Numbered from the stretch's first letter, positions 16,402 to 32,314 are shown. The stretch is 33,147 nt of DNA from Candidatus Jacksonbacteria bacterium (GCA_018698735.1 JABIPD010000110.1:1-33147); one strand, 5' to 3'. Program-made: numbers and translations. The notes: a model not told the origin generated them from the letters alone.

Positions 16402-16450
16402 GACGATGGTCAGGTTGGTAAGTTGGCTGTTCACGAAGCTGCTAGGGAGC

Positions 16451-16774
16451 CTAGAGCTTCGCAGATTTGTGAAGTATGGTTCCTATCGTGAAGAGAAAGG
16501 GGATGACTATCGCTCCCCCTGACAATATAGAGAGACGCCAGGGTAGTCGCTGTTCCGACCTCTGCTTCTTGTAGGCGAGAGCGAAGTAGCACCCCAGCAC
16601 CGACACAAAGATCAGTATGGTCAGTATTAAGACCGCAGCTATCCCATGGGGGGATGCAAGTCGACAGCCTACGAACGACGCCACAAGGAGAACCGTTGGA
16701 TGGATGATCGTGCTTCTCTCGGACATGAACTTGAGCGAGCATCCAACTCCTCGTTCGAACCAAGTTATCGACAT
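16451..16774 (-). CDS. GC-rich island 1: small 3-TM membrane protein (107 aa), orphan
   Basis: Start set at ATG 16774 (M55 of track ORF 16451..16936). It lies 28 nt after the upstream stop, with AAAGGA 7 nt upstream. Hydrophobic helices TVLLVASFVGC, IAAVLILTILIFVSVLGCYFALAY and GGAIVIPFLFTIGTIL. Confidence 0.5.
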   Translation of the reverse strand: MSITWFERGVGCSLKFMSERSTIIHPTVLLVASFVGCRLASPHGIAAVLILTILIFVSVLGCYFALAYKKQRSEQRLPWRLSILSGGAIVIPFLFTIGTILHKSAKL

Positions 16775-16802
16775 CGAGGTGTCCTTTCTTCTGTTTAGCA
16801 GC

Positions 16803-17132
16803 CTAGAGTCCCGCTGCTTGACTGAAGATGTTGTAGGTCCAGTGGAGACAGATCCCGCCAGTGATGGATATTGCCGTGAGAGTGGTAGCTCGAACTCCAG
16901 CCACTCGGCCGACTCGAAGAAATCGGCAGGATACATAGGAGATCAGCAGGACTGCTGCGATCGAGCCGAATACCATTAGCTGTACGAACGTGCCACTGTC
17001 CGATGCAGCAAACCTGGTTATCAGTGACCACCCCACGAGTGAGAACATGTAGAGCGCTTCGAAAGCCCTTTTGTTCACTCGAAAGCGTTGACCGTCGTCC
17101 CATTCGGGGCCGTCACAAGTCTGTTTGGTCAT
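16803..17132 (-). CDS. GC-rich island 1: small 3-TM membrane protein (109 aa), orphan
   Basis: ATG 17132. Helices ALYMFSLVGWSLITRF, FVQLMVFGSIAAVLLISYV and LTAISITGGICLHW. Possible promoter TTGATT-17-TAGCTT at 17200-17172 (weak). Confidence 0.55.
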   Translation of the reverse strand: MTKQTCDGPEWDDGQRFRVNKRAFEALYMFSLVGWSLITRFAASDSGTFVQLMVFGSIAAVLLISYVSCRFLRVGRVAGVRATTLTAISITGGICLHWTYNIFSQAAGL

Positions 17133-17213
17133 GGTTTTACCCTTCGTAAGGAACGCGTGGACGTTATTTATAAGCTATCATGGGAAAGGTTATAAATCAA
17201 TTGCATCCACTCC

Positions 17214-17240
17214 GTCATTCCGGCCTTGAGCCGGAATCCA
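17214..17240 (+). repeat. GTCAT-capped palindromic repeat (copy 2)
   Basis: GTCATTCCGGCcttgaGCCGGAATCC has a perfect 8-bp inverted repeat ATTCCGGC/GCCGGAAT. Confidence 0.6.
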
Positions 17241-17246
17241 TGTTTT

Positions 17247-18797
17247 ATGAGAATTAATAAATTTCCTGGATCCCGAGTCGGGGCCCCCCATCACAAGGAC
17301 GGGGCACCGCGGGATGACAAACAAAATCAATTATATCCATATCAAATTTTAAGAATAGCAGGAATCTTTTTTTTAATTGGAGTATTTGTTGCGACATTTA
17401 TAGTTCCTCCTCCGGTCATCATTGTAACAACAGGAATACTAGCTGCAATCACGCTTGTAATCGCATTTATATTTAAGAAGAAAAGAATAGTAGCTTTGTC
17501 TCTGGCTATTCTTTTTTTATTTTTGGGAATAGGGAGATTTTCGATAGGCACTACAGAATTGCAAAACTCCATCCTTATTCACAAAGAAAAGGAAGTGTCA
17601 TTTAAGGGGGGAATTTTTAGAGAGCCCGAAAGACTTTCAGACAAGCAACGAATTTCGATTCAACCACAAGACTACGAAGGAAATATTCTTGTAACAACCA
17701 GATTGTATCCAGAATATAATTATGGAGATGTCTTAAATATAACCTGTAAAATTCAGCAGCCAGGAGTTATAGAAGATTTCGACTATGGGAATTATTTAAA
17801 AACAAAAACTATCGATGCGGTTTGTTATTATCCTAAAAGCGTTAATGTGGTAGAAACTCAGGGTAATACTATTATTAAATCTATCTTAACGTTAAAGCAG
17901 AAAGTGCTTAGTTCTATTAACCAATCTTTACCAGAGCCACATTCGTCTTTGCTCGCAGGTATTTTAGTTGGAGCAAGAAGAAGCATTCCAGAGGGATTGC
18001 TAGAAGATTTTAATAGGGTTGGTTTAACACATATTATTGCGATATCTGGATATAATATCACACTCATTGTTCGATTTGTTTTAATTCTTGCTCCCTGGGT
18101 CTGGATAAATAGGCGACACGCATTTTGGTTGATGATGCCGTTAATAGGAGTGTTTGTTATTTTTGTTGGTGGACAAGCCTCTGTAGTGCGGGCGGCATTA
18201 TTTGGCATAATTGGAGCATTGGCATATACCATAGGAAGAAAACAATCTATTGGGAATGCATTATTGGTAACAGCTGCCGCCATGGTGGCTATTAATCCAT
18301 GGATTTTACGATACGACGCTGGTTTTCAATTATCGTTTTTGGCAACTCTTGGATTAGTGTATATAGAGCCATTGTTTGAAAGATTAAGAACTGGGAAGTT
18401 TTTGTTTTTAAAAGAGATAGCAACAGCAACACTTGCTGCAACTATCGCGACACTGCCTTTAATTTTATATATATTTGGAAGATTATCTGTTGTAAGTTTA
18501 TTTGCGAATTTGTTAATTTTACCAGTAGTTCCTTGGGTAATGGCACTTGGGGCTGTTGTAACGTTTGTTGTAGCGATTGTTCCTTTAGGATATTTAGCTG
18601 TTTCTGTTGTTTCTTTTCCGGTGTGGATATTGCTGGAATACGTTATTCGAGTTGCAGAGTGGTTGTCTGGGTTTGGGTGGGCGAGTGTTTCTATTGAGTG
18701 GTTTTCGTGGCCATGGTTAATAATAAGTTATGGATTACTGGGTTGGTTGTTGCTTGCTTGGCATCGCAAGAAAATACTCTCCACCTCTAAATTTTGA
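17247..18797 (+). CDS. comEC: ComEC/Rec2 DNA internalisation channel (OB/DUF4131 + competence domains, no MBL domain)
   Basis: Multi-TM protein with RVGLTHIIAISGYNITLI and GGQASVVRAALFG competence-domain motifs. Start set at the first ATG (17247), as there is no later in-frame ATG before the TM region. The TTG at 17226 lies inside repeat copy 2. Confidence 0.8.
   Translation: MRINKFPGSRVGAPHHKDGAPRDDKQNQLYPYQILRIAGIFFLIGVFVATFIVPPPVIIVTTGILAAITLVIAFIFKKKRIVALSLAILFLFLGIGRFSIGTTELQNSILIHKEKEVSFKGGIFREPERLSDKQRISIQPQDYEGNILVTTRLYPEYNYGDVLNITCKIQQPGVIEDFDYGNYLKTKTIDAVCYYPKSVNVVETQGNTIIKSILTLKQKVLSSINQSLPEPHSSLLAGILVGARRSIPEGLLEDFNRVGLTHIIAISGYNITLIVRFVLILAPWVWINRRHAFWLMMPLIGVFVIFVGGQASVVRAALFGIIGALAYTIGRKQSIGNALLVTAAAMVAINPWILRYDAGFQLSFLATLGLVYIEPLFERLRTGKFLFLKEIATATLAATIATLPLILYIFGRLSVVSLFANLLILPVVPWVMALGAVVTFVVAIVPLGYLAVSVVSFPVWILLEYVIRVAEWLSGFGWASVSIEWFSWPWLIISYGLLGWLLLAWHRKKILSTSKF
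17268..17318 (-). repeat. GTCAT-capped palindromic repeat (copy 3, inverted), inside the 5' end of comEC
   Basis: The minus strand reads GTCATCCCGcggtGCCCCGTCCTTGTGAtggggggccccgactCGGGATCC. It shares the GCCCCGTCCTTGTGA core with copy 30735-30790. Length is 51 nt. Confidence 0.55.
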
Positions 18798-18800
18798 TAT

Positions 18801-18826
18801 TATAAAACCCATACGTATGTATGGGG
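18801..18826 (-). terminator. Intrinsic terminator of island 2 operon
   Basis: The minus strand reads CCCATAC-atac-GTATGGG followed by TTTTATAAT. Confidence 0.55.
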
Positions 18827-18914
18827 AAAGGCTTCGTAGAAATGGTAAGAGCTCGACGCGGGGCGGGTCGCGGCGAGCTCTGGTTACGGGGAACGGATTG
18901 TTGGACGCTGGTGT

Positions 18915-19178
18915 TTATGGCCTTGTGTATGTAACAATGGCCACTACCTCCTTGCTGAAGTCTCGATTGTAGGCCGTCGACTTCAGTTGGACTCCGACGA
19001 ATTCCACTCCTGGAAGTTCGAGGTTAAGCCTTTCTTTAGAACGATCTTCGAGCACGTCTTCCACTCGGTCGTTCTGGCTGACGGTGAAGCCCACCTCAAG
19101 GAGGGGTTCGGAACCTTGATTCCAGACCCAAACCGCGAGTGCTGCTGTTATAACGAGTACGGTCAGAGTTGCTCGCAT
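18915..19178 (-). CDS. GC-rich island 2: 87-aa signal-anchored/secreted protein, orphan
   Basis: ATG 19178, with GGAAGAGG upstream. N-terminal MRATLTVLVITAALAVWVW hydrophobic segment, then a soluble domain. Confidence 0.55.
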   Translation of the reverse strand: MRATLTVLVITAALAVWVWNQGSEPLLEVGFTVSQNDRVEDVLEDRSKERLNLELPGVEFVGVQLKSTAYNRDFSKEVVAIVTYTRP

Positions 19179-19185
19179 GGGAGTG

Positions 19186-19374
19186 TTACCTCTTCCTTAA
19201 CGGATTGCGTAGCGAGAGCCTCGTCAAGGCGATTAGGGTTGCTGCGAAGAGAAGCGCTTGTTCGAGGTCTATCGCCATCAGCTGGTTCAAGCCAAGTTGT
19301 CGTGCTATAGCGGCCGACAACGCGACTGCAGCTAGCAGGGCAGCTGTGAACTTGGGAGTATCTTCGCGGAACAT
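19186..19374 (-). CDS. GC-rich island 2: 62-aa two-helix membrane protein, orphan
   Basis: ATG 19374, 3 nt after the upstream stop. Its own stop lies 7 nt before the next ATG. Helices FTAALLAAVALSAAIA and ALLFAATLIALT. Confidence 0.5.
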   Translation of the reverse strand: MFREDTPKFTAALLAAVALSAAIARQLGLNQLMAIDLEQALLFAATLIALTRLSLRNPLRKR

Positions 19375-19377
19375 AGA

Positions 19378-19461
19378 TTACCCTTCGGGATTTTGAGTGA
19401 GCATCTGCAAGAAGCAGGCGAAGATCAAGATCGAAAGCGGGATGTATTCTATACTGTCCAT
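19378..19461 (-). CDS. GC-rich island 2: 27-aa hydrophobic peptide (MDSIEYIPLSILIFACFLQMLTQNPEG), tentative
   Basis: Hand-translated, as it is below the track cut-off. ATG 19461, TAA 19380-19378, one TM-length hydrophobic stretch and a weak RBS. Confidence 0.3.
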   Translation of the reverse strand: MDSIEYIPLSILIFACFLQMLTQNPEG

Positions 19462-19496
19462 TCTAAGTCCAACCCAAGCTCTGTGTTAATGCTGAT

Positions 19497-19525
19497 ATAT
19501 TAGCATAATAATACTTATTTGTCAA
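19497..19525 (-). promoter_or_regulatory. Sigma70-like promoter for island 2 operon
   Basis: The minus strand reads TTGACA (19525-19520), a 17-nt spacer, then TAATAT (19502-19497). It overlaps the start codon region of the divergent MBL gene. Confidence 0.4.
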
Positions 19526-20418
19526 TGTTTGTTTTATCTAAAAAATGGCTTGTTTTAACATCTTTTGTGATTTTTTTAGGGGCATTAGGCTTGTTATTGG
19601 TGTTTTATTTTAGTCCAACACAGGCTCTAAAACAGCTCGAAATAACGTTTTTTAATGTAGGACAAGGCGATTCTGTGCTTATTCAAACGCCGTATCAACA
19701 AAACATTATTATCGATGGTGGGCCAGATAATTCGCTTATCCAAAAGCTTGGCAGAACACTGCCTTTTTATGATAGAACCATAGACCTTATCATCATCACC
19801 CATCCGCAGTCAGATCATTTTTTTGGGTTTATAGATGTTTTAGAAAGATATAAGGTAGAACGAATTATAACAGCAGATATTCCGTACGAAACAGAAGATT
19901 GGAAAGCATTTGTATTGCTTGCACAACAAAAAAATATTCCAACGCATTTTGTTTCATCAGAACGCAGCATCACTTTAGGAGAGGATCTTTTTCTCACTTT
20001 TTTATGGCCACAAGAGCAATTTATTAATACTCAAACATTAAAAGACGCAAATGAAGGGTCTGTCGTTGCCGAGCTAGTGTACAAAGATCAGAAATATTTA
20101 TTTGCAGGAGAAATTACCCAGGAGATAGAAAAAAGGTTAATAGAAAAGAATTTGTTTCACGATATAGATGTATTAAAGGTTGCGCATCATGGAAGCAAAA
20201 CATCTACCAGCAAAGAATTTATACACAGCACTACCCCAGAGGTGGCAATTATTATGGCAGGCAAAGAGAATAGATTTGGGCATCCGAATTTTAGAACCCT
20301 TAAAACACTTCAAGATTCGAATATTCCCACATTTCGTACCGATATTCATGGCGACATTACCATTACTTCCGATGGAGCAAGGTATTCGACAGTTCCGCAA
20401 TTTTCTGGTGGTTTATAA
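19525..20418 (+). CDS. ComEC-type metallo-beta-lactamase domain protein with own N-terminal TM helix
   Basis: ATG 19525 (the track starts at TTG 19519). FFNVGQGDSVLIQTP, IITHPQSDHFFG (HxHxDH-like) and VLKVAHHGSKTSTS are typical of the C-terminal MBL domain of ComEC/Rec2. Confidence 0.8.
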   Translation: MFVLSKKWLVLTSFVIFLGALGLLLVFYFSPTQALKQLEITFFNVGQGDSVLIQTPYQQNIIIDGGPDNSLIQKLGRTLPFYDRTIDLIIITHPQSDHFFGFIDVLERYKVERIITADIPYETEDWKAFVLLAQQKNIPTHFVSSERSITLGEDLFLTFLWPQEQFINTQTLKDANEGSVVAELVYKDQKYLFAGEITQEIEKRLIEKNLFHDIDVLKVAHHGSKTSTSKEFIHSTTPEVAIIMAGKENRFGHPNFRTLKTLQDSNIPTFRTDIHGDITITSDGARYSTVPQFSGGL

Positions 20419-21512: not shown

Positions 21513-21534
21513 TTTTTCATCACTCAAAAAGAAA

Positions 21535-21557
21535 AGGGGCCGAAAGGCTCCTTTTTA
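21535..21557 (+). terminator. Intrinsic terminator after ndk
   Basis: AGGGGCC-gaaa-GGCTCCT stem (one G-U pair) followed by TTTTT. Confidence 0.6.
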
Positions 21558-21574
21558 GTTTTCCACAGTTTTTC

Positions 21575-21603
21575 TTGACGCATGAATGAAAATTCTTTAA
21601 TGT
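21575..21603 (+). promoter_or_regulatory. Sigma70-like promoter
   Basis: TTGACG (21575-21580), a 17-nt spacer, then TAATGT (21598-21603). Confidence 0.45.
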
Positions 21604-21607
21604 AAGT

Positions 21608-21750
21608 ATCAATATGCATCAGCAGACATCCAAACTCTTTATTATTAATAAACTTGTCACAGACAAGGTGAGTTTTGATACTGAAGCATAAGCGTAGATA
21701 ACCTAAGCAGAAATCAAGACTCGCCACCTAAAAAGGGCGATGTTTTTTTC
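21608..21750 (+). ncRNA. Structured leader/attenuator or sRNA candidate upstream of island 3 ORF 21775
   Basis: About 140 nt between the promoter and the terminator TCGCC(21721-25)/GGCGA(21736-40)+T8. AGGTGAGTTTTGA (21666-21678) can alternatively pair with TCAAGACTCGCCACCT (21714-21729), sequestering the 5' terminator arm. It also holds a 25-codon ORF (21614-21691) without SD. Confidence 0.35.
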
Positions 21751-21774
21751 TGCCTATCTCGGAGAGGACAAACC

Positions 21775-21912
21775 ATGGCGACCGAACACCTCGACGAAGA
21801 GCGGCTTGAAGAAGAACAGCCCGAACACCATACGAGTGCCGAGGCGGCTGAGAAGTTTCTAGCTACTTTGAGAGACGCCGAGTTCGACTACGCTTGCCGC
21901 TGTCAGAGCTAG
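21775..21912 (+). CDS. GC-rich island 3: 45-aa acidic peptide (MATEHLDEERLEEEQPEHHTSAEAAEKFLATLRDAEFDYACRCQS), tentative
   Basis: Hand-translated. GGAGAGG lies 7 nt before ATG 21775, and TAG is at 21910-21912. Confidence 0.35.
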   Translation: MATEHLDEERLEEEQPEHHTSAEAAEKFLATLRDAEFDYACRCQS

Positions 21913-21974
21913 GCCAAGGAACGGGCGCAAGAGAGAGCACCCTACGAGTTGAAGCCAACAAAAAGGAGTCCATT

Positions 21975-22250
21975 GTGGCTCAAAAAATCGCAACGCCGAG
22001 CAGCACGAAAATCCACATTACAGGAAGCCTTCCTTGTGGGGGTTGCTGCGGAGACGAGAACGGAGTCAACTGCGGACTTGCACCTGGCGGCTGCTGGGGA
22101 ACGGATTTTCTCGCGGGCGAACCTGGAATGTCAGGCGACCCGCAGCACTCCGGCGCGATTCCGCCGCCAGATGCCGATGATGGTGATGTCACCTGGGCAA
22201 CATGGTGCAATGATGAAGTAGGCGGACAGGGCCTGCGTGGTGCGGACTAA
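21975..22250 (+). CDS. GC-rich island 3: 91-aa Gly/Cys-rich protein, orphan
   Basis: AAGGAG lies 6 nt before an in-frame GTG at 21975, preferred over the track start at 21894, which overlaps the previous ORF. Motif PCGGCCGDENGVNCGLAPGGCWG. Confidence 0.45.
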   Translation: MAQKIATPSSTKIHITGSLPCGGCCGDENGVNCGLAPGGCWGTDFLAGEPGMSGDPQHSGAIPPPDADDGDVTWATWCNDEVGGQGLRGAD

Positions 22251-22265
22251 CCGGTACGAGAACTT

Positions 22266-22304
22266 GGAAGGGAGAGGTAGATAACGATTTGCCTCTCTCC
22301 TTCC
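22266..22304 (+). terminator. Hairpin after ORF 21975..22250 (no U-tract)
   Basis: GGAAGGGAGAGG (22266-22277) pairs with CCTCTCTCCTTCC (22292-22304) with one bulge. Confidence 0.35.
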
Positions 22305-22308
22305 CCAC

Positions 22309-22336
22309 TTGACAAATAGGGAGGAAGTGGTAGAAT
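22309..22336 (+). promoter_or_regulatory. Sigma70-like promoter
   Basis: TTGACA (22309-22314), a 16-nt spacer, then TAGAAT (22331-22336). Confidence 0.5.
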
Positions 22337-22342
22337 TATTTT

Positions 22343-22486
22343 CGGTATATGTATTATCAGCACTCTAAATGCACATCAGCGAATGTGAAATCCCGTTTTA
22401 ACGGGATGGGGTTTGGTACTGCATAGCGAACGACTTGAAACGAACGATGTGCTCACCAGAGACCCCACGACGAAAGGGGTTTTTTG
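22343..22486 (+). ncRNA. Riboswitch-/attenuator-like structured leader upstream of ORF 22529
   Basis: Closing helix GCACATC (22371-77)/GATGTGC (22446-52) and inner hairpin ATCCCG-ttttaa-CGGGAT (22390-22407). Terminator is ACCCC (22462-66)/GGGGT (22476-80)+T5. GGGGTTTGGT (22408-17) can pair with ACCAGAGACCCC (22455-66) as an antiterminator. No known class recognised. Confidence 0.4.
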
Positions 22487-22528
22487 ATGGGCTAGGCTGA
22501 ATCCTAAGGAAGCGAAGGAGCGGTTTCC

Positions 22529-22723
22529 ATGTCCGTCGCAAGCAATCACACTCCGCCAGAAGTAACTGCGTTATCTGTCGATCCGGCAGAGGTTCTGGTG
22601 GAGGTAACCGACGACACTGTTGTCACAGAGCCTGTGGAGCCTCCGACTGCTTCACCGTCGCCTCGAACCGACTATTTGGCGTTTGATTTTCCAACATCGA
22701 CGACGTGGAAGATCGGTCGCTAG
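22529..22723 (+). CDS. GC-rich island 3: 64-aa acidic Pro/Thr/Val-rich protein, orphan
   Basis: AAGGAG lies 8 nt before ATG 22529. Track ORF. Confidence 0.45.
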   Translation: MSVASNHTPPEVTALSVDPAEVLVEVTDDTVVTEPVEPPTASPSPRTDYLAFDFPTSTTWKIGR

Positions 22724-22755
22724 AGCCCGAAGACTGAGATCATTTCGTCACCGAG

Positions 22756-22798
22756 GAGGCTGTGCGTGTATCCAACAGATACTTATACGCACGGCCTC
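22756..22798 (+). terminator. Long hairpin after ORF 22529..22723
   Basis: GAGGCTGTGCGTGTAT pairs with ATACGCACGGCCTC (a near-perfect stem with one G-U pair and a 2-nt bulge). The following T-content is weak. Confidence 0.4.
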
Positions 22799-22860
22799 TC
22801 TTCATTTCAATTTAATACTAATAATGATATACTGTATTTAGCTGAGGCTAGGGGTGTAAA

Positions 22861-22995
22861 ATGTGTTCTATAAAAAATCTCAAGGTAGTCCTTATCGATC
22901 ACTTCCGTGGAAGTGGTCTGCGGGCTCATGCGTTTACTCTGCCTTTAGGTAGACTAAACTACTTGCACTTGGGAACACTTTTCACTTCTGGTTAA
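22861..22995 (+). CDS. 44-aa ORF (MCSIKNLKVVLIDHFRGSGLRAHAFTLPLGRLNYLHLGTLFTSG) within a promoter-to-terminator unit; could instead be an ncRNA
   Basis: TTCAAT-16-TATACT lies at 22806-22833, and AGGGGTG lies 4 nt before ATG 22861. The unit ends at hairpin 23033-23064. Confidence 0.25.
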   Translation: MCSIKNLKVVLIDHFRGSGLRAHAFTLPLGRLNYLHLGTLFTSG

Positions 22996-23032
22996 AGCAC
23001 CAAGGGTTTATGACACACCATGGTATTTAGCT

Positions 23033-23064
23033 CACCCTCTTTCGGGATTATCCCCAAGAGGGTG
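23033..23064 (+). terminator. Hairpin terminator
   Basis: CACCCTCTT (23033-41) pairs with AAGAGGGTG (23056-64), followed by TTGCTTATT. Confidence 0.5.
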
Positions 23065-23082
23065 TTGCTTATTAAAGAAATA

Positions 23083-23106
23083 AAAAACACCGACTACTGT
23101 GTTTTT
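23083..23106. terminator. Bidirectional A-run/T-run hairpin downstream of lysS
   Basis: AAAAACAC-cgactact-GTGTTTTT is symmetric, so it is usable from either strand. Confidence 0.5.
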
Positions 23107-23111
23107 GTTTT

Positions 23112-23178
23112 GTAGAGACGTATCGGTGATACGTCTTATTTAAATGTATCAAAAGACGCGGCATCGCCGCGTCTCTAC
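23112..23178. repeat. Compound palindromic element (GTAGAGACG ... CGTCTCTAC)
   Basis: Outer inverted repeat GTAGAGACG (23112-20)/CGTCTCTAC (23170-78). It encloses two hairpins, AGACGTATC/GATACGTCT and AGACGCGGC/GCCGCGTCT. Confidence 0.5.
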
Positions 23179-23185
23179 CGATTGT

Positions 23186-23214
23186 GTCATGTCCCCTCCT
23201 TTAGAAGGAGGGGA
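23186..23214 (+). repeat. GTCAT-capped palindromic repeat (variant)
   Basis: GTCATG-TCCCCTCC-tttagaa-GGAGGGGA. Its loop and stem resemble hairpin 33022-33054. Confidence 0.5.
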
Positions 23215-23230
23215 TAGAGGGGTGGTCTGT

Positions 23231-24691: not shown

Positions 24692-24750
24692 AATGGAGTA
24701 ATCGTATACGAGCGGGCGTGAAAAATCAATTAGGGAGATAATTTTGGAAT

Positions 24751-24785
24751 AAAAACGGGTACCCCTGGAGTCGTTGAGGTACCCT
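24751..24785 (-). terminator. Intrinsic terminator of island 4 bicistron
   Basis: GGGTACC (24757-63) pairs with GGTACCC (24778-84). On the minus strand this is followed by GTTTTTATT. Confidence 0.6.
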
Positions 24786-24832
24786 TGAACACATAGCTCG
24801 TGTTCGATAATGCACGAAGCGCATCCAGGCCG

Positions 24833-25309
24833 TCAGTCGTGTGTGCTGGCTTCGTGTCTGGGATGCTGAAGCGCAGCATCGATGACTTGTAGCTCCTGCC
24901 CGGCTCTTCGGTTTTCCATCCAGTCGAGAATCCCTTGGAGCTCTTCGCGCGTAGTTGCTTTGGCGGAATTCTCAGGGTTGAAGGTGTCCCTTCTTCCTAT
25001 CTTGACGATCCCGCTGTTTTTCGCGCTCGGGATGACGATCACATCCGGCCAAGTATCCGTCGACTCCTGGATGTGCCGTGCTGCCATCGCCCTGATTCGA
25101 GTTCCTGTATTGCAGAGGTCACTCAAGTCGATGACTACCGCCCGTTTGCCAGCTGCAGCGCGGTTCAGGTTCCCGAAAGTTCCGGATCCTGTTCGCCTGT
25201 CAACATCTTCTCGAAGTAGGCGATCTAGCATGGTCTCGATCTGGTGGTCTCCATTGAGACCGGCTATCGCGGGGTGGTGGTTTTCGGGGCCGAGAACGAG
25301 AAGTTTCAT
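24833..25309 (-). CDS. GC-rich island 4: 158-aa cytosolic protein, orphan (downstream partner)
   Basis: ATG 25309 overlaps the upstream stop (ATGA at 25309-25306). It begins MKLLVLGPEN (Rossmann-like first strand). No named domain recognised. Confidence 0.6.
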   Translation of the reverse strand: MKLLVLGPENHHPAIAGLNGDHQIETMLDRLLREDVDRRTGSGTFGNLNRAAAGKRAVVIDLSDLCNTGTRIRAMAARHIQESTDTWPDVIVIPSAKNSGIVKIGRRDTFNPENSAKATTREELQGILDWMENRRAGQELQVIDAALQHPRHEASTHD

Positions 25310-25713
25310 GTGGCGATTCCGTGTGCTACGAGAGTCTCTTTGGTGAAGAGTTCTCTCATGATTTCCGATGCAGCTCGTGAAGGTAAGCTGATGTGCGCGA
25401 GCTCGAGTGAGCTGCGCACGTGTGGGTCGTCTGCTGCACCCAGTACTAGGGGTGCTGGCGAAGACAACTCGAGGACATCAACAACCGTAAGAGGCGCTGT
25501 TGTTCCATTGGCAGCGAGAAGAGAAAGCAATGTCCAGGCGAGCTGACGAACCTCTAGAGTTGTGCCATCTCTGGCAAACCGAGAGAGGCTTTTCCTCTGC
25601 ATCTGAGCATTTGTTTCTGCCATGCTAGGAAGCCTGGCATTCTCCCCCCTCCTTTGTTGGGGGAGACGGAAGCCGATGAGTGCTGCAGCTGATGTTACTT
25701 GTGACGAAGACAC
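25306..25713 (-). CDS. GC-rich island 4: 135-aa protein, orphan (upstream partner)
   Basis: GTG 25713 with AGGAG 8 nt upstream (25726-25722). Stop TGA 25308-25306 overlaps the next start. Confidence 0.55.
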   Translation of the reverse strand: MSSSQVTSAAALIGFRLPQQRRGENARLPSMAETNAQMQRKSLSRFARDGTTLEVRQLAWTLLSLLAANGTTAPLTVVDVLELSSPAPLVLGAADDPHVRSSLELAHISLPSRAASEIMRELFTKETLVAHGIAT

Positions 25714-25764
25714 CGAGACGCTCCTGTCGAGTCTGTGTGGAAGGGACGATTTCCTGCTAATACG

Positions 25765-25793
25765 AATATACTAAATAATGATTTTAATGTCAA
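25765..25793 (-). promoter_or_regulatory. Sigma70-like promoter of island 4
   Basis: The minus strand reads TTGACA (25793-88), a 17-nt spacer, then TATATT (25770-65). Confidence 0.5.
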
Positions 25794-25815
25794 TTTAATC
25801 TTGTGGTTTATGGAT

Positions 25816-25850
25816 CAAAAAATAAACGGCTCACTGCATGAGCCGTTTAT
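25816..25850 (-). terminator. Intrinsic terminator downstream of ndh
   Basis: 12-bp stem ATAAACGGCTCA/TGAGCCGTTTAT with a T-run on the minus strand (A-run 25816-25821 on plus). Confidence 0.6.
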
Positions 25851-25900
25851 TTATGCTAAAGAAAGCCTAATTTGAGATTTAAGTTTTTAAATCCTTGCTT

Positions 25901-25960
25901 GTCATTTCGCGCGCCCCGTACCGAATGGTTACTGGGGAGGAGGCTCGGCGACGAGAAATC
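25901..25960 (+). repeat. GTCAT-capped palindromic repeat (copy 4)
   Basis: GTCATTTCGcgcGCCCCGTAcc...ACTGGGGAGGAGgctcggcgaCGAGAAATC. It shares the GCCCCGT and ACTGGGGAGGAG blocks with copy 30631-30709. Confidence 0.55.
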
Positions 25961-25993
25961 GGGGAACGAATGAACAGGTATTGCTCGACTACA

Positions 25994-26033
25994 GATTTCT
26001 CGTCTCCGCTAATAGGCGGATTCTCGAAATGAC
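25994..26033 (-). repeat. GTCAT-capped palindromic repeat (copy 5, inverted)
   Basis: The minus strand reads GTCATTTCGAGAatccgcctattagcggagaCGAGAAATC. It forms an inverted pair with copy 4. Confidence 0.55.
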
Positions 26034-26043
26034 AGAAGAAGAG

Positions 26044-27285
26044 TTAAAGCTCGGAAATATCGCGGTGGGTAAAGATTCTAATAGTCCATTCTACGGTTGC
26101 TCGTAATCGCTGTTTCCATGAAATAAGTTTTGCAAAATAAATAGTTCTCCACATCCACCATGCAAACCTACCGGTGAGCGAAAAACTACCTATTTGCGCT
26201 GCTGCTTTCCATCTTCCTAGCGACAATAGCATTCCAGCGGATTTATAATGAAAAGCTTTTACAGGTTTATTGTTTATGAGTCGTTGTATGTTGATGGCAG
26301 TTGCACTGGCCTGCTGTACTGCAGCTTGCGCGAGTGCTGGCACGTTTTCCGGGTGATCTGCCATGTCGCCTAGCACAAATATTTCTGGCGAACTAGTAAT
26401 CTGAAGACTTGCATTTACAGTAATTTTTCCGTCGAAAGATTTTGCTGGTTTTATATCAAACTCTATTTCAGCGGCTTTAATCCCTGCAACAAAAATGGGA
26501 GTAGCAGTGTGTAGCGTTTTTCCGCTTTCTAGGGTAATGCCGTTTTCGTCTATGCTCTCTACTGATTGTTGGAGATGCATGTTAACGCCAGCTTTCTGTA
26601 ATTGTTTCAGGCTCTCTCTTTGAATTGTTGGTGCAAACGAAGAAACCAATTTGTCTGAGCGTTCTATTAAATGAACCTGCGCATGCTGCATTAATTCCAA
26701 GGGGTAGAATCTTCTAAAAGTTTTATGAATAAATTCTGCTAACTCGGAGGCTATCTCTACTCCGGTTGGGCCGCCGCCAATAACGGCAAATTGAAGCAGT
26801 TGTTTTTGTTTTTTTGCATCTGCCTCATGGCGGGCGTGTTCGAAGCATTCTATGACGTGATTTTTAAGTTTAATGGCATCTTCCATTGTTTTTAATGTAA
26901 AGCAATGTTTGCGTGCATTGGTAATATTAAAAAAGTTTGTTTTTGCACCAAGTGCAATTACTAAATAGTCGTATGAAATATTCCCAAGCGAAGTTTGTAT
27001 TAATTGTTCTTGGCTATGTATTTTTTGTGCGGTTGCTTGGTAAAAATCTGTTTGGCAGCAGGTAATAAAACTACGAATAGGTTGCATTATAGTATCTGGC
27101 GGTAATCCACCGGTTGCAACCTCGTGTAAGAGGGGAGTAAACAGGAAATAATTTTTTGGGTTTACTATAATTATTTCTATTTGTTTGTTGCTGTGGAATT
27201 TTTTGTGGAGATAACGAAAAGTATTAACACCAGCAAACCCGGCTCCTAAAATTACTATTCGTATTTTTTTTGTTTCTGCTTTCAT
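26044..27285 (-). CDS. ndh: Type II NADH dehydrogenase (NDH-2)
   Basis: 413 aa. Two dinucleotide-binding motifs, IVILGAGFAGV and AVIGGGPTGVE, and a C-terminal amphipathic/membrane segment. Confidence 0.85.
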   Translation of the reverse strand: MKAETKKIRIVILGAGFAGVNTFRYLHKKFHSNKQIEIIIVNPKNYFLFTPLLHEVATGGLPPDTIMQPIRSFITCCQTDFYQATAQKIHSQEQLIQTSLGNISYDYLVIALGAKTNFFNITNARKHCFTLKTMEDAIKLKNHVIECFEHARHEADAKKQKQLLQFAVIGGGPTGVEIASELAEFIHKTFRRFYPLELMQHAQVHLIERSDKLVSSFAPTIQRESLKQLQKAGVNMHLQQSVESIDENGITLESGKTLHTATPIFVAGIKAAEIEFDIKPAKSFDGKITVNASLQITSSPEIFVLGDMADHPENVPALAQAAVQQASATAINIQRLINNKPVKAFHYKSAGMLLSLGRWKAAAQIGSFSLTGRFAWWMWRTIYFAKLISWKQRLRATVEWTIRIFTHRDISEL

Positions 27286-28403: not shown

Positions 28404-28473
28404 AGAGCCTGTAATGGTTAATAGGTTACTTACTATAAGTATACCTTGGGAAGAAATTTTAGTGAATGTCTCC

Positions 28474-28527
28474 TATAAAACAGAACGGGGCCTTAGTGTG
28501 TAGACGTATCTACAGTTACTAAGGCCC
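28474..28527 (-). terminator. Long hairpin overlapping the island 5 stop codon
   Basis: GGGCCTTAG (28488-96) pairs with CTAAGGCCC (28519-27), with inner GTAGA/TCTAC. The U-rich tract begins 7 nt after the stem, so this is only moderately convincing. Confidence 0.4.
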
Positions 28528-28995
28528 ACGGGAGGTAGGGTTAGGGGCGCCAGCGACTGGCTGGCTTGTGCTCTCAGTGGTTGGTTCAAGCACCGGGCGG
28601 CCTCCTTGTTCGTGAAGGGTAAAGTCCTGGCACTTCAATTTTACCATGGCCACAATCTCGGACCGCGTGTATTGGGAAGCTTGGCCAGATTCGAATTCAA
28701 AGCTGAACGAGTCTTCTATTGACCATGAACCAAGCTGGAGCTTTGTTGTTGGTACCGGCTCTTTGGCAGGGCTAATCGAGGCGATTCTCGTCCAGATGCC
28801 GTTTGTGTTTTGCTCAAGGAAAACGGTCTCTCCGGTTTGGTTTCGGATCGTTACCGGGACCGTAAAGATTGAAACATTCACACAAACTACAAGTGGCGGG
28901 CCAAGAAGCGACCCACCACAGCCGAGGATTACCAAGAGGAATGCGAAGAGAGCTAGCATGAAGGCGATTTGCACACTGCGGCGACGTAATACCAT
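28519..28995 (-). CDS. GC-rich island 5: 158-aa putative lipoprotein, orphan
   Basis: AAGGAG lies 8 nt before ATG 28995. N-terminal MVLRRRSVQIAFMLALFAFLLVILGC has a lipobox-like ILGC. The C-terminus is Pro/Thr-rich. Confidence 0.6.
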   Translation of the reverse strand: MVLRRRSVQIAFMLALFAFLLVILGCGGSLLGPPLVVCVNVSIFTVPVTIRNQTGETVFLEQNTNGIWTRIASISPAKEPVPTTKLQLGSWSIEDSFSFEFESGQASQYTRSEIVAMVKLKCQDFTLHEQGGRPVLEPTTESTSQPVAGAPNPTSRGP

Positions 28996-29031
28996 GACCA
29001 GTTCTCCTTTGGTGCGAGGCTTCGTTGCATA

Positions 29032-29061
29032 TATCTAACAATGCTTTTGGGAGCTTGTCAA
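29032..29061 (-). promoter_or_regulatory. Sigma70-like promoter of the lipoprotein gene
   Basis: The minus strand reads TTGACA (29061-56), a 17-18-nt spacer, then TTAGATA (29038-32). Confidence 0.45.
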
Positions 29062-29071
29062 AAAAAACTTC

Positions 29072-29100
29072 TTGACTTTTGTTTCTGGGAGGACTATAAC
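29072..29100 (+). promoter_or_regulatory. Divergent sigma70-like promoter driving the non-coding transcript
   Basis: TTGACT (29072-77), a 17-nt spacer, then TATAAC (29095-100). It lies back to back with the minus-strand promoter, 10 nt away. Confidence 0.45.
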
Positions 29101-29106
29101 AGGGGT

Positions 29107-29471
29107 GTGAGAAGATTTCTGATCCCATTGCTCGCCCAGGGGCCGTTGCGGGGAATAGTAGTGGTAGCGGGCTTGAAAAAGGAACAGCGACGCGAGCCTT
29201 TCAGATATTTTCTTTGAAGGCTGGTATGCCTGTTTAATGGATGTCAGCCTTCCTCCTTATTTTTTCGTTCTTTCTCAACTTTAGAGTGTGTACCTGCGTG
29301 GCGTTTGACGATTTCGAAATAAGTCCTCAGTTCGTCAGACTTTCGTAGGTACGCAAAAGCCAGCTGGAATCATGGAACCACCTATCTCGTCCAATTGTTG
29401 GATCGAGCCTAGGCCTCAATTCATGTTCCAGCTGGCACCCCTCCGAATAGAGTACGAGGGGTGATTTTTTT
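29107..29471 (+). ncRNA. About 365-nt structured non-coding RNA candidate (island 5)
   Basis: No SD-preceded ORF in any plus-strand frame (checked by hand). Successive helices are GAAGGCTG/CAGCCTTC (29216-29252), GTACCTGCG/CGTAGGTAC (29290-29352) enclosing TGACGA/TCGTCA, and CCAGCTGGAATCATG/CATGTTCCAGCTGG (29360-29435). A strong terminator follows. Confidence 0.4.
29436..29471 (+). terminator. Intrinsic terminator
   Basis: CACCCCTC (29436-43) pairs with GAGGGGTG (29456-63), followed by A and T7. Confidence 0.7.
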
Positions 29472-29473
29472 AA

Positions 29474-29920
29474 TTAAAGTAATTTTTCTAAATGGATTCT
29501 GGTTTGTTCTATTTCTTCGTAGGGTGTTGTTTCGGTAAACATAAATCCATTCGAAACTAAAAAAGCCAGCATTTCTCTGCGGCAGTTTCGTGTTTTTATC
29601 GTTAGTTTTTTGTAGTCCTTATCTTTAGCCCATTGCAGCTGGTGTGTCATCAACTGTTTCATCACTCCCTTTCTTCTGTGCAGTGGATCAACCCCCGCCA
29701 TCCAGCAGTAGAAAGAATTATCAGAGTCTCTATCGTAGCTTACCATATATCCTGCTGGTGCATTGCCTACAAATGCAATCAGAATACAGTGATCTTTTTT
29801 TCTATACCGATCAGTAAAGTAGTTTGCAGTGTATGGCTGTGGCGAAGAGAACTCGGGGATTGTTTCGTTTATTGCCATTGCCTGACGGATGGTTCCCTCC
29901 TTAACAGAGAGATGCGCCAT
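29474..29920 (-). CDS. GNAT-family N-acetyltransferase
   Basis: Start set at ATG 29920, 7 nt after the upstream stop (the track starts at TTG 29935). Acetyl-CoA motif region HRRKGVMKQLM. Confidence 0.8.
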   Translation of the reverse strand: MAHLSVKEGTIRQAMAINETIPEFSSPQPYTANYFTDRYRKKDHCILIAFVGNAPAGYMVSYDRDSDNSFYCWMAGVDPLHRRKGVMKQLMTHQLQWAKDKDYKKLTIKTRNCRREMLAFLVSNGFMFTETTPYEEIEQTRIHLEKLL

Positions 29921-29927
29921 AAGAAAT

Positions 29928-30257
29928 TTAGCCAATAACGTACTGAATTAAGAATACGGCGGTCATTGCGAACACAAGAATAATGCTGATAATAAGCAGT
30001 GCTGCTTTTAGGAATTTTTCTTCTTGTTTGTTTTTTATTATTCCAGTAATAGCAAGTAAGAAGGAAAGGACCGGTAATCCAATCGTTAAAATAAAACCAG
30101 TGGCAGGGGTAAGCGATTGGAACGATTTTGTAAGCGGCGAGTCTGGAAAAAAGTTAAAGAGTTTGAATATTGCACCAGTCCAAAAGAGTGCGGTTGGGAC
30201 CAAGAGGATAAACCCAAGTGTTGTAAGTTGAGTAAGACCTCGTTTTTCATTTTTCAT
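29928..30257 (-). CDS. Small 3-TM membrane protein, unknown function (host-like composition)
   Basis: 109 aa with helices at residues about 10-30, 50-75 and 85-105. Apparently co-transcribed with the GNAT gene. Confidence 0.55.
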   Translation of the reverse strand: MKNEKRGLTQLTTLGFILLVPTALFWTGAIFKLFNFFPDSPLTKSFQSLTPATGFILTIGLPVLSFLLAITGIIKNKQEEKFLKAALLIISIILVFAMTAVFLIQYVIG

Positions 30258-30308: not shown

Positions 30309-30335
30309 ATCAAAAAATATCCCTTTCGGGATATT
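30309..30335 (-). terminator. Intrinsic terminator after rpmB
   Basis: The minus strand reads AATATCCC-gaaa-GGGATATT followed by TTTTGA. Confidence 0.6.
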
Positions 30336-30342
30336 CGTTGAT

Positions 30343-30519
30343 TTAAGCAGCAAGTTTAGACATTACTCGTAGACACCTGGTACAAACGTCTCGTTTTTTT
30401 CCTTCTATCTTTTTTGTTTGAAGATTTGGATAAACGCGACGTTTTGTTTTTACCATTGAGTGCGATCGAGATAAAGACATTTTAGAACTTCGCTTGCAGA
30501 GGTAACATTCTTTAGCCAT
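30343..30519 (-). CDS. rpmB: 50S ribosomal protein L28
   Basis: Hand-translated 58-aa ORF below the track cut-off: MAKECYLCKRSSKMSLSRSHSMVKTKRRVYPNLQTKKIEGKKRDVCTRCLRVMSKLAA. It matches the L28 pattern C..C...SHS..KTKRR..PNLQ...VC..CLR. Confidence 0.85.
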   Translation of the reverse strand: MAKECYLCKRSSKMSLSRSHSMVKTKRRVYPNLQTKKIEGKKRDVCTRCLRVMSKLAA

Positions 30520-30630
30520 AGAGAGGTATTATTGATAACGAGACATACTGTACCAGATATTTGTATAGAGGTCAATTATTTTTTTATAGTCATTAGCGAT
30601 GTGTGTATTCGTATGTTTTGATTGTGATAT

Positions 30631-30709
30631 GCAGAGATCCTTCGCCGACATGCAGTCTCCTCCCCAGTCACTCTGTCAAGCAGACTACGGACGGGGCAGG
30701 CTGGATGAC
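30631..30709 (-). repeat. GTCAT-capped palindromic repeat (copy 6, inverted)
   Basis: The minus strand reads GTCATCCAGCCTGCCCCGTCC...AGTGACTGGGGAGGAGACTGC...CGAAGGATCTCTGC. It has the same ATCTCTGC end as copy 1. Confidence 0.55.
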
Positions 30710-30734
30710 GAGTAAGGAGGACCCCTTTCCATTC

Positions 30735-30790
30735 GTCATTCAGCCGCGCCCCGTCCTTGTGACAAGGAGATTGTCTCAATCGAAGAATCT
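30735..30790 (+). repeat. GTCAT-capped palindromic repeat (copy 7)
   Basis: GTCATTCAGCCGCGCCCCGTCCTTGTGACAAGGAGATTGTCTCAATCGAAGAATCT contains the palindrome CCTTGTGACAAGG. It forms an inverted pair with copy 6. Confidence 0.55.
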
Positions 30791-30828
30791 TTGGAGCTTG
30801 GAATTATTCATCATTAAATTATTTTTAA

Positions 30829-30873
30829 GAAAACGAAAAGTGGTACCGGCTGCAGGATGCAACGAGTACCACC
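30829..30873 (-). terminator. Hairpin terminator after island 6 240-aa gene
   Basis: The minus strand reads GTGGTAC-19 nt-GTACCAC followed by TTTTCGTTTTC. Confidence 0.45.
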
Positions 30874-30910
30874 TATAATTCCTCCTTTCATGAGGATGTG
30901 AGTTTGTTGT

Positions 30911-31633
30911 TTAGAAGAACCATCGCGGCGCCTGTTCTGCAACCTGCGCGCCTTGCCATTCTTCGAGGTCTGGACAGAGGCTTTCGTCTCGAGTAAAGAA
31001 GAACGACATTCCTGGCCGCAGGTTCCTGAGGCTCGTAGGGACAGAGAAGTACTCGTCCCTTGAGGGGCGTACTCCGAGCTTGTCCAAGTCGCTCTCTTCG
31101 TTTGGGTCATCATGGCGAAGATGGACGTGCGGATATCCATCAATCACCTCTAGCCCTATGACCATGAGCCGGTTTGTTTCAACCTGCGGTGAATCAAGAA
31201 GGTCGATGTTTTCGTCTAGTTCGTCTGCGAGGACTGTTGCACGGTAGACGAAAGATCCGGGTAGATCTTCTGTCTGTGAAACAGACGCAAAAGGTCCTCG
31301 GAACGCTGGAAGGTGAATCCTTGGCATGGGGATCACTCTTCCCATTACCACGGATCCTCCGTGGTTTGTTATCATGATGCATTCGCCCATGGTAGGCGCA
31401 ATGCCATCATTTAGGAAGCAGACCAGGCCATCCCTGGCTCGCATTTCGTCACAGACTCCCACCCACGTTTGGGTGTCGTTGTTCCAGCGAAGTTTCGCTA
31501 CCAGGCTGGGCCCTTCATCCTTTAAGTTGGTGTAGATGGCTCTGCTGAGCTCTTCTGGGAGAACTCGAACTCCGAGTTCGGGCTTTGGCGGCTGAGTGAA
31601 GCTGCTGCGTCCGGCCTCTCGTCGCGTCGTCAT
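30911..31633 (-). CDS. GC-rich island 6: 240-aa cytosolic-looking protein, orphan
   Basis: Start set at ATG 31633 with GAGGAG 8 nt upstream. The track's TTG 31666 has no RBS. No domain recognised. Confidence 0.6.
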   Translation of the reverse strand: MTTRREAGRSSFTQPPKPELGVRVLPEELSRAIYTNLKDEGPSLVAKLRWNNDTQTWVGVCDEMRARDGLVCFLNDGIAPTMGECIMITNHGGSVVMGRVIPMPRIHLPAFRGPFASVSQTEDLPGSFVYRATVLADELDENIDLLDSPQVETNRLMVIGLEVIDGYPHVHLRHDDPNEESDLDKLGVRPSRDEYFSVPTSLRNLRPGMSFFFTRDESLCPDLEEWQGAQVAEQAPRWFF

Positions 31634-31809
31634 CGTTCCGTCTCCTCGTCGCGAAGGTCGGGTCAAGGTGCGGGCACAAATGCGAATTCAGATTTTGATT
31701 TTCTCTGTTTTTTCGCCGTGCAATTTAACATGATCTTCATAAAAATTCGCCGGTGCGACATTGTTGCAAAGCCAACATATACGGCAACACCATCGCACAT
31801 AGCGAGAGT

Positions 31810-31838
31810 AAAATATCATAATAAATAAATATTGTCAA
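31810..31838 (-). promoter_or_regulatory. Sigma70-like promoter (extended -10) for the 240-aa gene
   Basis: The minus strand reads TTGACA (31838-33), a 17-nt spacer, then TG-a-TATTTT (-10 at 31815-10). This implies a 5' UTR of about 170 nt. Confidence 0.4.
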
Positions 31839-31860
31839 GCGTTGTTTTGCGCTGTTTTTA

Positions 31861-31894
31861 AATAAAAAAAGACCCCGATATTGCGAATCGGGGG
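31861..31894 (-). terminator. Intrinsic terminator after the 99-aa gene
   Basis: The minus strand reads CCCCGAT-tcgcaat-ATCGGGG followed by TC and T7. Confidence 0.7.
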
Positions 31895-31938
31895 AAGTGG
31901 GTTGAAGGTTGGAGAGTTTGTCCACGAGCAGAGAATGA

Positions 31939-32238
31939 CTATCGAATGAGGCTAAAGGTTCCTTTGGTGGTTCTTTCGCCTTCACCGACAGCTAGCCACG
32001 AGGCCTGGTTGGGGTCATATCTCAGGTAAAGGATACTCACTCCCCCGAACCTGGGAGCGCTCACGTACAGAACCACTCCTTCTTCTTCAGATCCTCCTGA
32101 GCTTGTGACGGTGCCAATTATGTGATGGCCCGAATTGTCATGGAAGATGAACCTTCTTCCAACAGGCTCGTCTTTCACGCCCGCTTCCTGCAAAGAGTGC
32201 TGAATCCTTTCTAGCAAGTCTTTTGTTACTTGATCCAT
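31939..32238 (-). CDS. GC-rich island 6: 99-aa protein, orphan
   Basis: AAGGAGG lies 7 nt before ATG 32238. Possible TTGTCT-18-TAATGT promoter at 32330-32301. Confidence 0.6.
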   Translation of the reverse strand: MDQVTKDLLERIQHSLQEAGVKDEPVGRRFIFHDNSGHHIIGTVTSSGGSEEEGVVLYVSAPRFGGVSILYLRYDPNQASWLAVGEGERTTKGTFSLIR

Positions 32239-32314
32239 ACTCGTGCCTCCTTAAAGGTGCATATTTCGGTGCACAGCGAGTCTGTGCTTGCGAACAAATA
32301 ACATTATCCTTTTT

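Follow-up and report, generated by a model that had tools for sequence, protein, structure and literature searches.

The genomes of Patescibacteria are tiny, their cells probably live attached to those of other organisms, and the ways in which these bacteria gain genes are poorly known. A stretch of 33,147 nt from Candidatus Jacksonbacteria bacterium (GCA_018698735.1 JABIPD010000110.1:1-33147; hereafter the window) raises this question in a compact and reproducibly assembled form: where did the six G+C (GC)-rich blocks of orphan open reading frames (ORFs) that lie between the genes of its AT-rich housekeeping locus come from? We read them, with moderate confidence, as small horizontally acquired gene islets in hotspots of gene flux. 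Import is favored because the blocks differ from the core genes in composition, have a common dinucleotide signature, carry ORFs led by Shine-Dalgarno (SD) sites in an SD-poor genome, and are missing from the same sites in syntenic relatives. About one third of a 17-kb housekeeping region would then consist of recently gained orphan genes.

The six blocks were initially described from the sequence alone (hereafter the sequence-only reading), and their position between core genes is borne out by the sliding GC profile, the block GC contents, the spacer lengths, and the Pfam annotation of the flanks. As delimited in that reading, the blocks have GC contents of 0.53, 0.53, 0.54, 0.55, 0.50, and 0.51, compared to 0.385 in the remainder of 16.4–33.1 kb and 0.41 in the first 16.4 kb; in a 300-nt sliding profile they form six plateaus of 0.50–0.58 over a background of 0.33–0.45. 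The core-to-core spacers that contain them are 727–1832 nt long with a GC content of 0.48–0.52, whereas the remaining 17 measure 4–260 nt at 14–42% GC (15 of them at 0.14–0.38). The spacers and the islets that they hold are as follows.

16402..17246, minus strand: islet 1, prfB-comEC spacer, 845 nt, GC 0.52
18798..19524, minus strand: islet 2, comEC-mbl spacer, 727 nt, GC 0.50
21513..23230, plus strand: islet 3, ndk-lysS spacer, 1718 nt
24692..26043, minus strand: islet 4, lysS-ndh spacer, 1352 nt, GC 0.51
28404..29473, minus strand: islet 5, membrane protein-GNAT spacer, 1070 nt
30520..32351, minus strand: islet 6, L28-M50 spacer, 1832 nt

By Pfam, the core genes on this side of the window are prfB, comEC (DUF4131 and Competence domains), a separate metallo-beta-lactamase gene (mbl), a response regulator (rr), ndk, lysS, NDH-2 (ndh), and genes for a membrane protein, a GNAT protein, L28, and an M50 peptidase; upstream of the island region lie ftsA, ftsZ, nrdR, and the genes for class II ribonucleotide reductase and HtrA. 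The earlier statement that the first 16.4 kb is free of such blocks also held: none of the island type occurs at 1–16401 or in the 10 kb further left. Blocks at least 500 bp long and at least 0.10 above the local median GC occur here at about 3.3 per 10 kb, compared to 0.18 per 10 kb in the loci of relatives (1.25 Mb from 80 species).

Sharp compositional boundaries of this kind could also mark an assembly chimera or an engineered construct, the third origin proposed in the sequence-only reading, and they are the sole point in its favor. The exact LysS protein of the window is indexed in 76 blocks of a public assembly collection, and four contigs of 29–72 kb (ENA, NCBI GCA_018647985.1, and JGI) are 99.995–100% identical to the window across each junction that they cover; all twelve junctions are reproduced in assemblies from different samples and pipelines. 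Look-ups with the M50 gene and with the left-end gene returned more contigs, from other samples, in which the gene order is kept. The island proteins are recorded on 7–47 contigs each, most of them on more than 40, as are the flanking proteins, and the variants are limited to single substitutions or frameshifts on short, low-coverage contigs. Given (near-)identical sequence in contigs of 29–84 kb from different samples, sources, and assemblers, we reject the mosaic, barring a read set common to all the assemblies, and give it next to no probability. The population is effectively clonal, with 99.995–100% identity across samples and repositories, which rules out polymorphism tests of selection or coding.

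Islets and core genes also differ in their codon positions. GC content at third codon positions (GC3) ranges from 0.49 to 0.63 in the island ORFs (pooled, 0.56) and from 0.25 to 0.42 in the core genes (0.33); the two ranges do not overlap, so that the sets are cleanly separable. Pooled GC contents at the first, second, and third positions (GC1/GC2/GC3) are 59.4/46.2/56.4 for the islands and 49.7/36.0/32.7 for the core genes. When the GC content of the source genome was estimated from these values by the Lawrence-Ochman relations, island GC1 and GC3 alike implied about 52.5%, and the core genes implied 37–38%. Amelioration would depress GC3 first; since GC1 and GC3 agree, the islands bear no sign of it. 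The dinucleotide distance (delta*) between islands and core is 115–124, while halves of the island set differ by 51–64, the noise level of core-versus-core comparisons at equal size. The six islands therefore share one dinucleotide signature, in which GA/TC is high, TA is very low, and GC is not enriched.

Ribosome-binding sites separate the two gene sets as well. With a criterion of at least 4 nt of AGGAGGU located 4–18 nt before the start, SD sites precede 9 of the 12 island ORFs and 3 of the 33 core genes (Fisher P = 4e-5), and two of these three core genes have doubtful GTG starts. Seven of the 12 island ORFs carry at least 5 nt of the motif; the chance rates inside the islands are 0.19–0.23 for 4 nt and 0.05–0.10 for 5 nt. 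Core starts that were checked against relatives (comEC, rr, ndk, lysS, and M50) likewise lack the motif. The core genes, including ribosomal protein genes, have A/T-rich leaders, for example at the starts 6947, 17247, 24691 (minus strand), 27285 (minus strand), 30519 (minus strand), and 32352, and also at 11532–20448 of contig L010. In a published survey the anti-SD motif was found in only 48% of Parcubacteria, one subgroup of which frequently lacks it, and some members were suggested not to form the SD helix (PMC9297842); the SD-poor core genes fit the reported lack of the motif in some Parcubacteria.

A further mark is a GC-rich motif of 22 nt (GGACGGGGCNCNGCNGNATGAC), which occurs once at the comEC-side edge of islet 1 (17297–17318, plus strand), inside a 5' extension of comEC, and again as an inverted pair in a hairpin at 30689–30756 (one arm at 30735–30756, minus strand), at the L28-side edge of islet 6. 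The 131-nt stretch with this hairpin, upstream of the L28 promoter, folds at −60 kcal/mol. No other copy was found in the rest of the window or in any fetched locus of a relative, and shuffled sequences gave 0 matches. The occurrence of the motif at the edges of islets 1 and 6 fits a single source, and it may be a repetitive extragenic palindromic (REP)-like element from the donor.

LysS assigns the organism to the Parcubacteria-type Patescibacteria; the nearest sequences are 75–76% identical and the next are at most 67%, at which level synteny is lost. A contig of ‘Parcubacteria group bacterium GW2011_GWA2_43_13’ (L013) has the backbone htrA-prfB-comEC-mbl-rr-ndk..lysS..membrane-L28..M50, two shorter contigs (L005 and L096) have the same arrangement, and L094 retains htrA to ndk. 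L013 and L094 are sisters (prfB 86% and ndk 96% identical), to which the window lineage is the outgroup. Neither has islet 1: their prfB-comEC slots measure 94 nt (L013) and about 2 nt (L094). The comEC-mbl slot, which lacks islet 2 in L013, measures 66 nt there; in L094 it is occupied by a 480-nt insert (GC 0.56), in which an unrelated membrane ORF of 109 aa runs on the opposite strand. In L013 the membrane gene adjoins L28, and islet 5, GNAT, the 109-aa gene beside it in the window, and ndh are all missing. The remaining slots contain other genes: GC-rich pabA and pabB with small ORFs between ndk and lysS in L013 (in L094, pabB follows ndk and the contig ends before lysS); a two-ORF block (GC 0.50) directly upstream of lysS in L013 and L005; and a 595-aa gene and a DUF5663 gene of ordinary composition between L28 and M50 in L013. 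Same-site comparison thus finds islets 1 and 5 absent, the slot of islet 2 nearly empty or differently filled, and slots 3, 4, and 6 occupied by other genes, with one weak likeness: i4a, the first gene of islet 4, matches o106, the first ORF of the L013/L005 block, at 28% identity over 50 aa (pairwise E = 0.001, shuffle P = 0.0015). There is no similarity between i4b and the second ORF of that block, and in a DNA alignment islet 4 and the L005 block are highly diverged. The SD contrast recurs in the relatives: pabA, o106, and the ORF of the L094 insert have SD-like sites, and the core genes do not.

Three observations on neighboring genes belong here. The pabA/pabB-like genes of the sister clade (GATase and chorismate-binding domains; L013 11505–13675, L094 7508–9085, L005 7129–8435) have a GC content of about 0.52 and lie beside lysS, downstream of ndk, with a GGAGG site before pabA; this biosynthetic pair is unusual for a Patescibacteria genome and is a traceable candidate for identifying the donor lineage. 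In all three relatives comEC is split from the metallo-beta-lactamase domain, which has its own N-terminal membrane helix (window 17247–18797 and 19525–20418; L013 16593–19118; L094 2087–4988); judged from these arrangements, the split is ancestral and predates islet 2, rather than being its product. The genes ndh (26044–27285) and GNAT with the adjoining 109-aa membrane gene (29474–30257) are missing from the corresponding L013 positions, though they have host-like composition and no SD site; they represent gene content that is older or has been rearranged, and are to be kept apart from the GC-rich islets.

Long, GC-rich spacers in AT-rich genomes, such as these, often hold structured RNA, and screens of intergenic regions by GC content and length are used to find riboswitches and large non-coding RNAs. 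We weighed whether the blocks encode protein or structured RNA, the sequence-only reading having held that their GC-rich part is mostly ORFs and structured RNAs. The longest open stretch exceeds that of dinucleotide shuffles in islands 1, 2, 4, and 5 (P ~0.02–0.04) and in island 6, where the ORF i6a is longer than any found in 300 shuffles (0/300); in island 3 there is no such excess. Stop triplets fall below the shuffle mean in all six islands, by about 1.7–2.3 standard deviations each. GC1 exceeds GC2 in most called island ORFs, promoter-like sites scoring 10–11/12 precede i2b, i4a, and i6a and also occur within island 3, and the 4-nt overlap of i4a and i4b resembles a coupled operon. On the RNA side, Rfam gave no match in the islands at the gathering score or at E ≤ 1, the window contains no tRNA or tmRNA gene, and mean fold z-scores in 100-nt windows are −0.2 to −1.1 in the islands versus −0.4 to −0.6 outside, that is, at background; the outliers are isolated hairpins, chiefly at island edges. 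Strong local hairpins (18848–18881, 29360–29435, and 30689–30756) and a promoter-leader-terminator layout at 22309–22488 speak for large structured RNAs, but the SD sites, the GC1>GC2 periodicity, the excess ORF length, the background folding, and the lack of any RNA family make this explanation extremely improbable, and for the bulk of the blocks it is largely refuted. Collectively, these results indicate that the blocks are mainly protein-coding rather than structured RNA. Islet 3, whose ORF lengths are not above those of shuffles, is the least certain coding block. The component features are listed below by islet.

16451–16774, or 16451–16936 from an upstream ATG, minus strand: i1b, a small membrane-protein ORF of islet 1
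16803–17132, minus strand: i1a, the second small membrane-protein ORF of islet 1
16388–16412, minus strand: terminator-like hairpin of islet 1, overlapping the prfB stop codon
17247..17330, plus strand: GC-rich 5' extension of comEC, about 27 codons missing in relatives, holding the 22-nt motif GGACGGGGCACCGCGGGATGAC at 17297–17318
18915–19178: i2a of islet 2, signal/anchor and beta-rich domain
19186–19374: i2b of islet 2, two hydrophobic helices
18808–18825 and 18848–18881: hairpins of islet 2
19460–19525, minus strand: promoter-like sites of islet 2
21775–21912: i3a of islet 3, a short SD-led ORF
21975–22250: i3b of islet 3, a short SD-led ORF, Cys/Gly-rich
22529–22723: i3c of islet 3, a short SD-led ORF
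22309–22336, plus strand: strong promoter of islet 3, TTGACA-16-TAGAAT with TG
23030–23215: tandem hairpins of islet 3, behind lysS
25306–25713: i4a, first gene (in ndh-to-lysS order) of the two-gene operon of islet 4
24833–25309: i4b, second gene of the operon, stop/start overlap of 4 nt
25765–25793: promoter of islet 4, TTGACA-17-TATATT
25820–25852: terminator of ndh
28519–28995, minus strand: i5a of islet 5, predicted lipoprotein with signal peptide and LVILGC lipobox
30911–31633: i6a of islet 6, 240 aa
31939–32238: i6b of islet 6, 99 aa
31810–31838: AT-rich promoter region of islet 6
30689–30756: long hairpin of islet 6, two inverted copies of the 22-nt motif

Islet 1, for which no hairpin terminator had been found in the sequence-only reading, does have a terminator-like hairpin at 16388–16412. 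Downstream of the strong promoter of islet 3 lies a structured leader (about 185 nt), whose end, directly before the SD site of i3c, is a terminator-like hairpin with a U-run (22459–22488); this layout (22309–22528, plus strand) is riboswitch- or attenuator-like, with no Rfam match. The tandem hairpins at 23030–23215 are four successive stem-loops (z down to −7) in the convergent terminator region of lysS and islet 3. Upstream of i5a, about 475 nt (28996–29473, minus strand) are without a convincing ORF and hold a near-perfect hairpin of 76 nt (29360–29435, z = −5.5) and a second hairpin at 29436–29463. The claim that the blocks truncate neither flanking gene is only roughly right: comEC takes about 27 N-terminal codons from GC-rich DNA, and prfB ends in other codons than it does in the relatives; in these places the inserts would have given their neighbors new gene ends, the comEC start and the prfB stop.

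What the islets encode was examined next. Public gene callers give about 12 products of 45–240 aa, in place of the approximately 13 of 27–240 aa proposed earlier. Two are membrane proteins with three helices, one is signal-anchored, one is a peptide of two helices, and one is a lipoprotein; the other seven are four soluble proteins and three short peptides that are acidic or Cys-rich. By simple hydropathy, i1a, i1b, i2a, and i2b are membrane proteins, i5a is a lipoprotein, and i4a, i4b, i6a, and i6b are soluble. This predicted mix may point to accessory roles in the envelope, interaction, or defense. That the products fit no recognized family is borne out by the profile and protein-cluster searches of those tested. 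Pfam, NCBIfam, PHROGs, and PADLOC returned only sub-threshold noise for the called ORFs tested (nothing below E = 0.02 with PHROGs and PADLOC), and when every other open stretch of the six spacers (45 aa or longer, all six frames) was scanned with Pfam, neither a match nor a recognizable pseudogene remnant came to light. A phmmer search of i6a against 1.84 billion representative proteins retrieved its own cluster and one spurious repeat protein, and i4b retrieved only itself among 5.8 billion (5.8e9) protein clusters. With tblastn, ten concatenated island proteins had no match among 50,697 phage and 72,556 plasmid records, and IMG/VR scans of i6a, i4b, and i5a gave no credible relative (the i5a match, 25 aa at 56%, is too short). 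PDB sequence searches with i6a and i4b returned nothing usable, and AlphaFold2 without alignment gave mean predicted local distance difference test (pLDDT) scores of 32 for i6a and 35 for i4b. When the island proteins, including those of the relatives, were compared all against all, no families emerged except the weak i4a-o106 pair.

Several of these results weigh against horizontal import. Collections that draw on about 15 billion proteins, metagenomes of the same samples among them, contain no homologue of i6a or i4b, and neither the ten proteins searched against phages and plasmids nor the three searched in IMG/VR found a credible match; a recent transfer from a co-resident donor should leave recognizable relatives, and the missing donor is the main difficulty. 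That leaves two options: an unsampled source, be it a rare organism or a mobile element missed by assembly, and older, fast-evolving genes, at which the weak i4a-o106 pair hints. If i4a has a true homologue at the same site in L013, at least islet 4 would be old and would have stayed GC-rich nonetheless. The islet promoters are AT-rich and host-like, and mobility genes, tRNA genes, and target duplications are all missing. Finally, with the window lineage as the outgroup, presence and absence cannot tell gain here from loss in the L013/L094 clade; composition and SD sites therefore carry the argument for gain.

A rival explanation is that the island ORFs are native: lineage-specific, fast-evolving accessory genes, ancestral to the group and lost or replaced in the L013/L094 clade, whose GC-rich codons and SD sites selection maintains, for example as a separately translated gene class. 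Orphan status despite exhaustive searches, the likeness of i4a to a same-position L013 ORF, the host-like promoters, and a phylogeny on which loss in the relatives is equally parsimonious all agree with it. The composition does not: in a genome of 38% GC, mutation pressure should erode GC3 fastest where genes are weakly constrained, whereas the island GC3 of 0.56 agrees with GC1 on an equilibrium of 53% GC, and the dinucleotide signature of the islands is unlike that of the core. Moreover, other lineage-specific genes of the locus (ndh, GNAT, the 109-aa membrane gene, and a giant surface protein) have host-like composition and no SD sites. We consider a native origin unlikely. Among the three origins put forward in the sequence-only reading, a donor of higher GC content is the best supported, with the reservation that no donor or homologue was found and that the proposed identity of this donor, the host of the bacterium, is still a guess.

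If the islets were imported, how did they enter six spacers? The modules are interspersed with core genes, occur on both strands, and bring promoter-like sites of their own. Over about 63 kb of contiguous sequence, made up of the window and, as gene calls, about 30 kb of flanking contig, there was no recombinase, integrase, or transposase, no ORF has a mobility domain, and there are no tRNA genes, flanking direct repeats, attC-like sites, target duplications at the islets, or direct or inverted repeat families common to the islands. The 12 boundaries have no common k-mer above the null. In a test for transposable elements, miniature inverted-repeat transposable elements, and REP elements the islands proved unrelated; only the 22-nt motif recurs within the window. 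These negatives, together with the variable orientation and gene number of the modules, speak against the second origin proposed earlier, an unrecognized cassette-insertion process, taken here as one that repeatedly puts single promoter-plus-ORF modules into spacers beside terminators in this clade. Six consecutive slots filled within 16 kb, and inserts that adjoin the terminator hairpins of upstream genes, are what such a process would produce, and the unrelated opposite-strand GC-rich ORF in the comEC-mbl slot of L094, missing from its sister L013, keeps the idea barely alive; there is no positive evidence for it and we rate it as highly improbable. A bolder version, very unlikely in our judgment, is that an undescribed system of the clade installs self-contained genes beside terminators from a private pool of about 50–56% GC, with two initiation regimes coexisting in one cell. 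If so, slots would be refilled independently in sister lineages, as the different comEC-mbl ORFs of the window and L094 would illustrate, and cargo consisting of promoter, SD site, and ORF would be SD-led among SD-less core genes.

Under horizontal import, each islet would comprise between one and three complete genes, promoters included, and sit in a spacer of a conserved block of Patescibacteria core genes, a block in which one hotspot of gene flux follows another. The six would all derive from one kind of source, with about 53% GC and SD-translated genes, and would have reached a recipient of about 38–40% GC whose own genes are SD-less. The route would probably have been DNA uptake followed by illegitimate or flank-homology-assisted recombination without a dedicated recombinase.

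Several known systems resemble the islets in part. Integron cassettes are contiguous, co-oriented, and mostly promoterless. Their arrays resemble the islets in that small, often orphan genes are added singly; unlike integrons, the window has no IntI and no attC, and its modules are non-contiguous, alternate with core genes, have their own promoters, and vary in orientation. Daubin and Ochman reportedly described phage-derived ORFans in bacterial genomes in 2004. Such ORFans are likewise short, taxonomically restricted, and atypical in composition; classical ones are AT-richer than the host, whereas the islet genes are GC-richer and have no credible match in PHROGs, GenBank phages, or IMG/VR. 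Non-coding RNA spacers of AT-rich genomes have in common with the islets that they are long and GC-rich, and differ in that the islets hold SD-led ORFs, show no excess folding, and match no RNA family.

The closest parallel is the set of transfer hotspots between core genes described by Oliveira, Touchon, Cury, and Rocha (2017, PMC5635113), where accessory genes are concentrated in few core-bounded intervals and their content turns over. Hotspots without mobile-element genes are numerous among them and are over-represented in bacteria capable of natural transformation (PMC5635113); comEC itself lies in the present locus. Unlike in those hotspots, six adjacent intervals are occupied here within 16 kb by one to three genes each, the inserts are GC-richer than the host, and no homologues of the cargo were found, so that turnover is untraceable. 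For Patescibacteria, the same phylum, both genomic islands and horizontal transfer have been documented, with islands detected by composition and transferred genes amounting to up to 13% of genome length (PMC12455944); the islands there were called by IslandViewer on concatenated contigs, and an SD contrast or a spacer-by-spacer layout is not described. Orphan, compositionally foreign islets in hotspots are thus a known kind of thing, and the present finding extends existing ideas without overturning them; what is unusual is their density in consecutive spacers, a GC content above that of the host, and the clean SD contrast with host genes.

The cargo bears three independent foreign marks, namely composition, dinucleotide signature, and ribosome-binding sites. 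The last of these offers a simple new criterion for imported genes in lineages without native SD sites, and raises the question of whether a host in which the anti-SD may be missing translates the cargo at all. Should the donor be the physical host of the bacterium, the islets would help to pair symbiont with host.

Two minor observations concern the surroundings. A seventh, weaker islet lies outside the window on the right side, between fusA and tuf (L010 14350–15342), and contains an SD-led orphan ORF of 115 aa at GC 0.50 that has no counterpart in L013; a conserved gene of 116 aa, to which the L013 counterpart is 55% identical, also parts fusA from tuf. At the left end, the first ORF of the window (1–2459) is the C-terminal 703 residues of a surface protein of 2431 aa with T4SS_pilin and Big_5 matches (L100 2687–9982).

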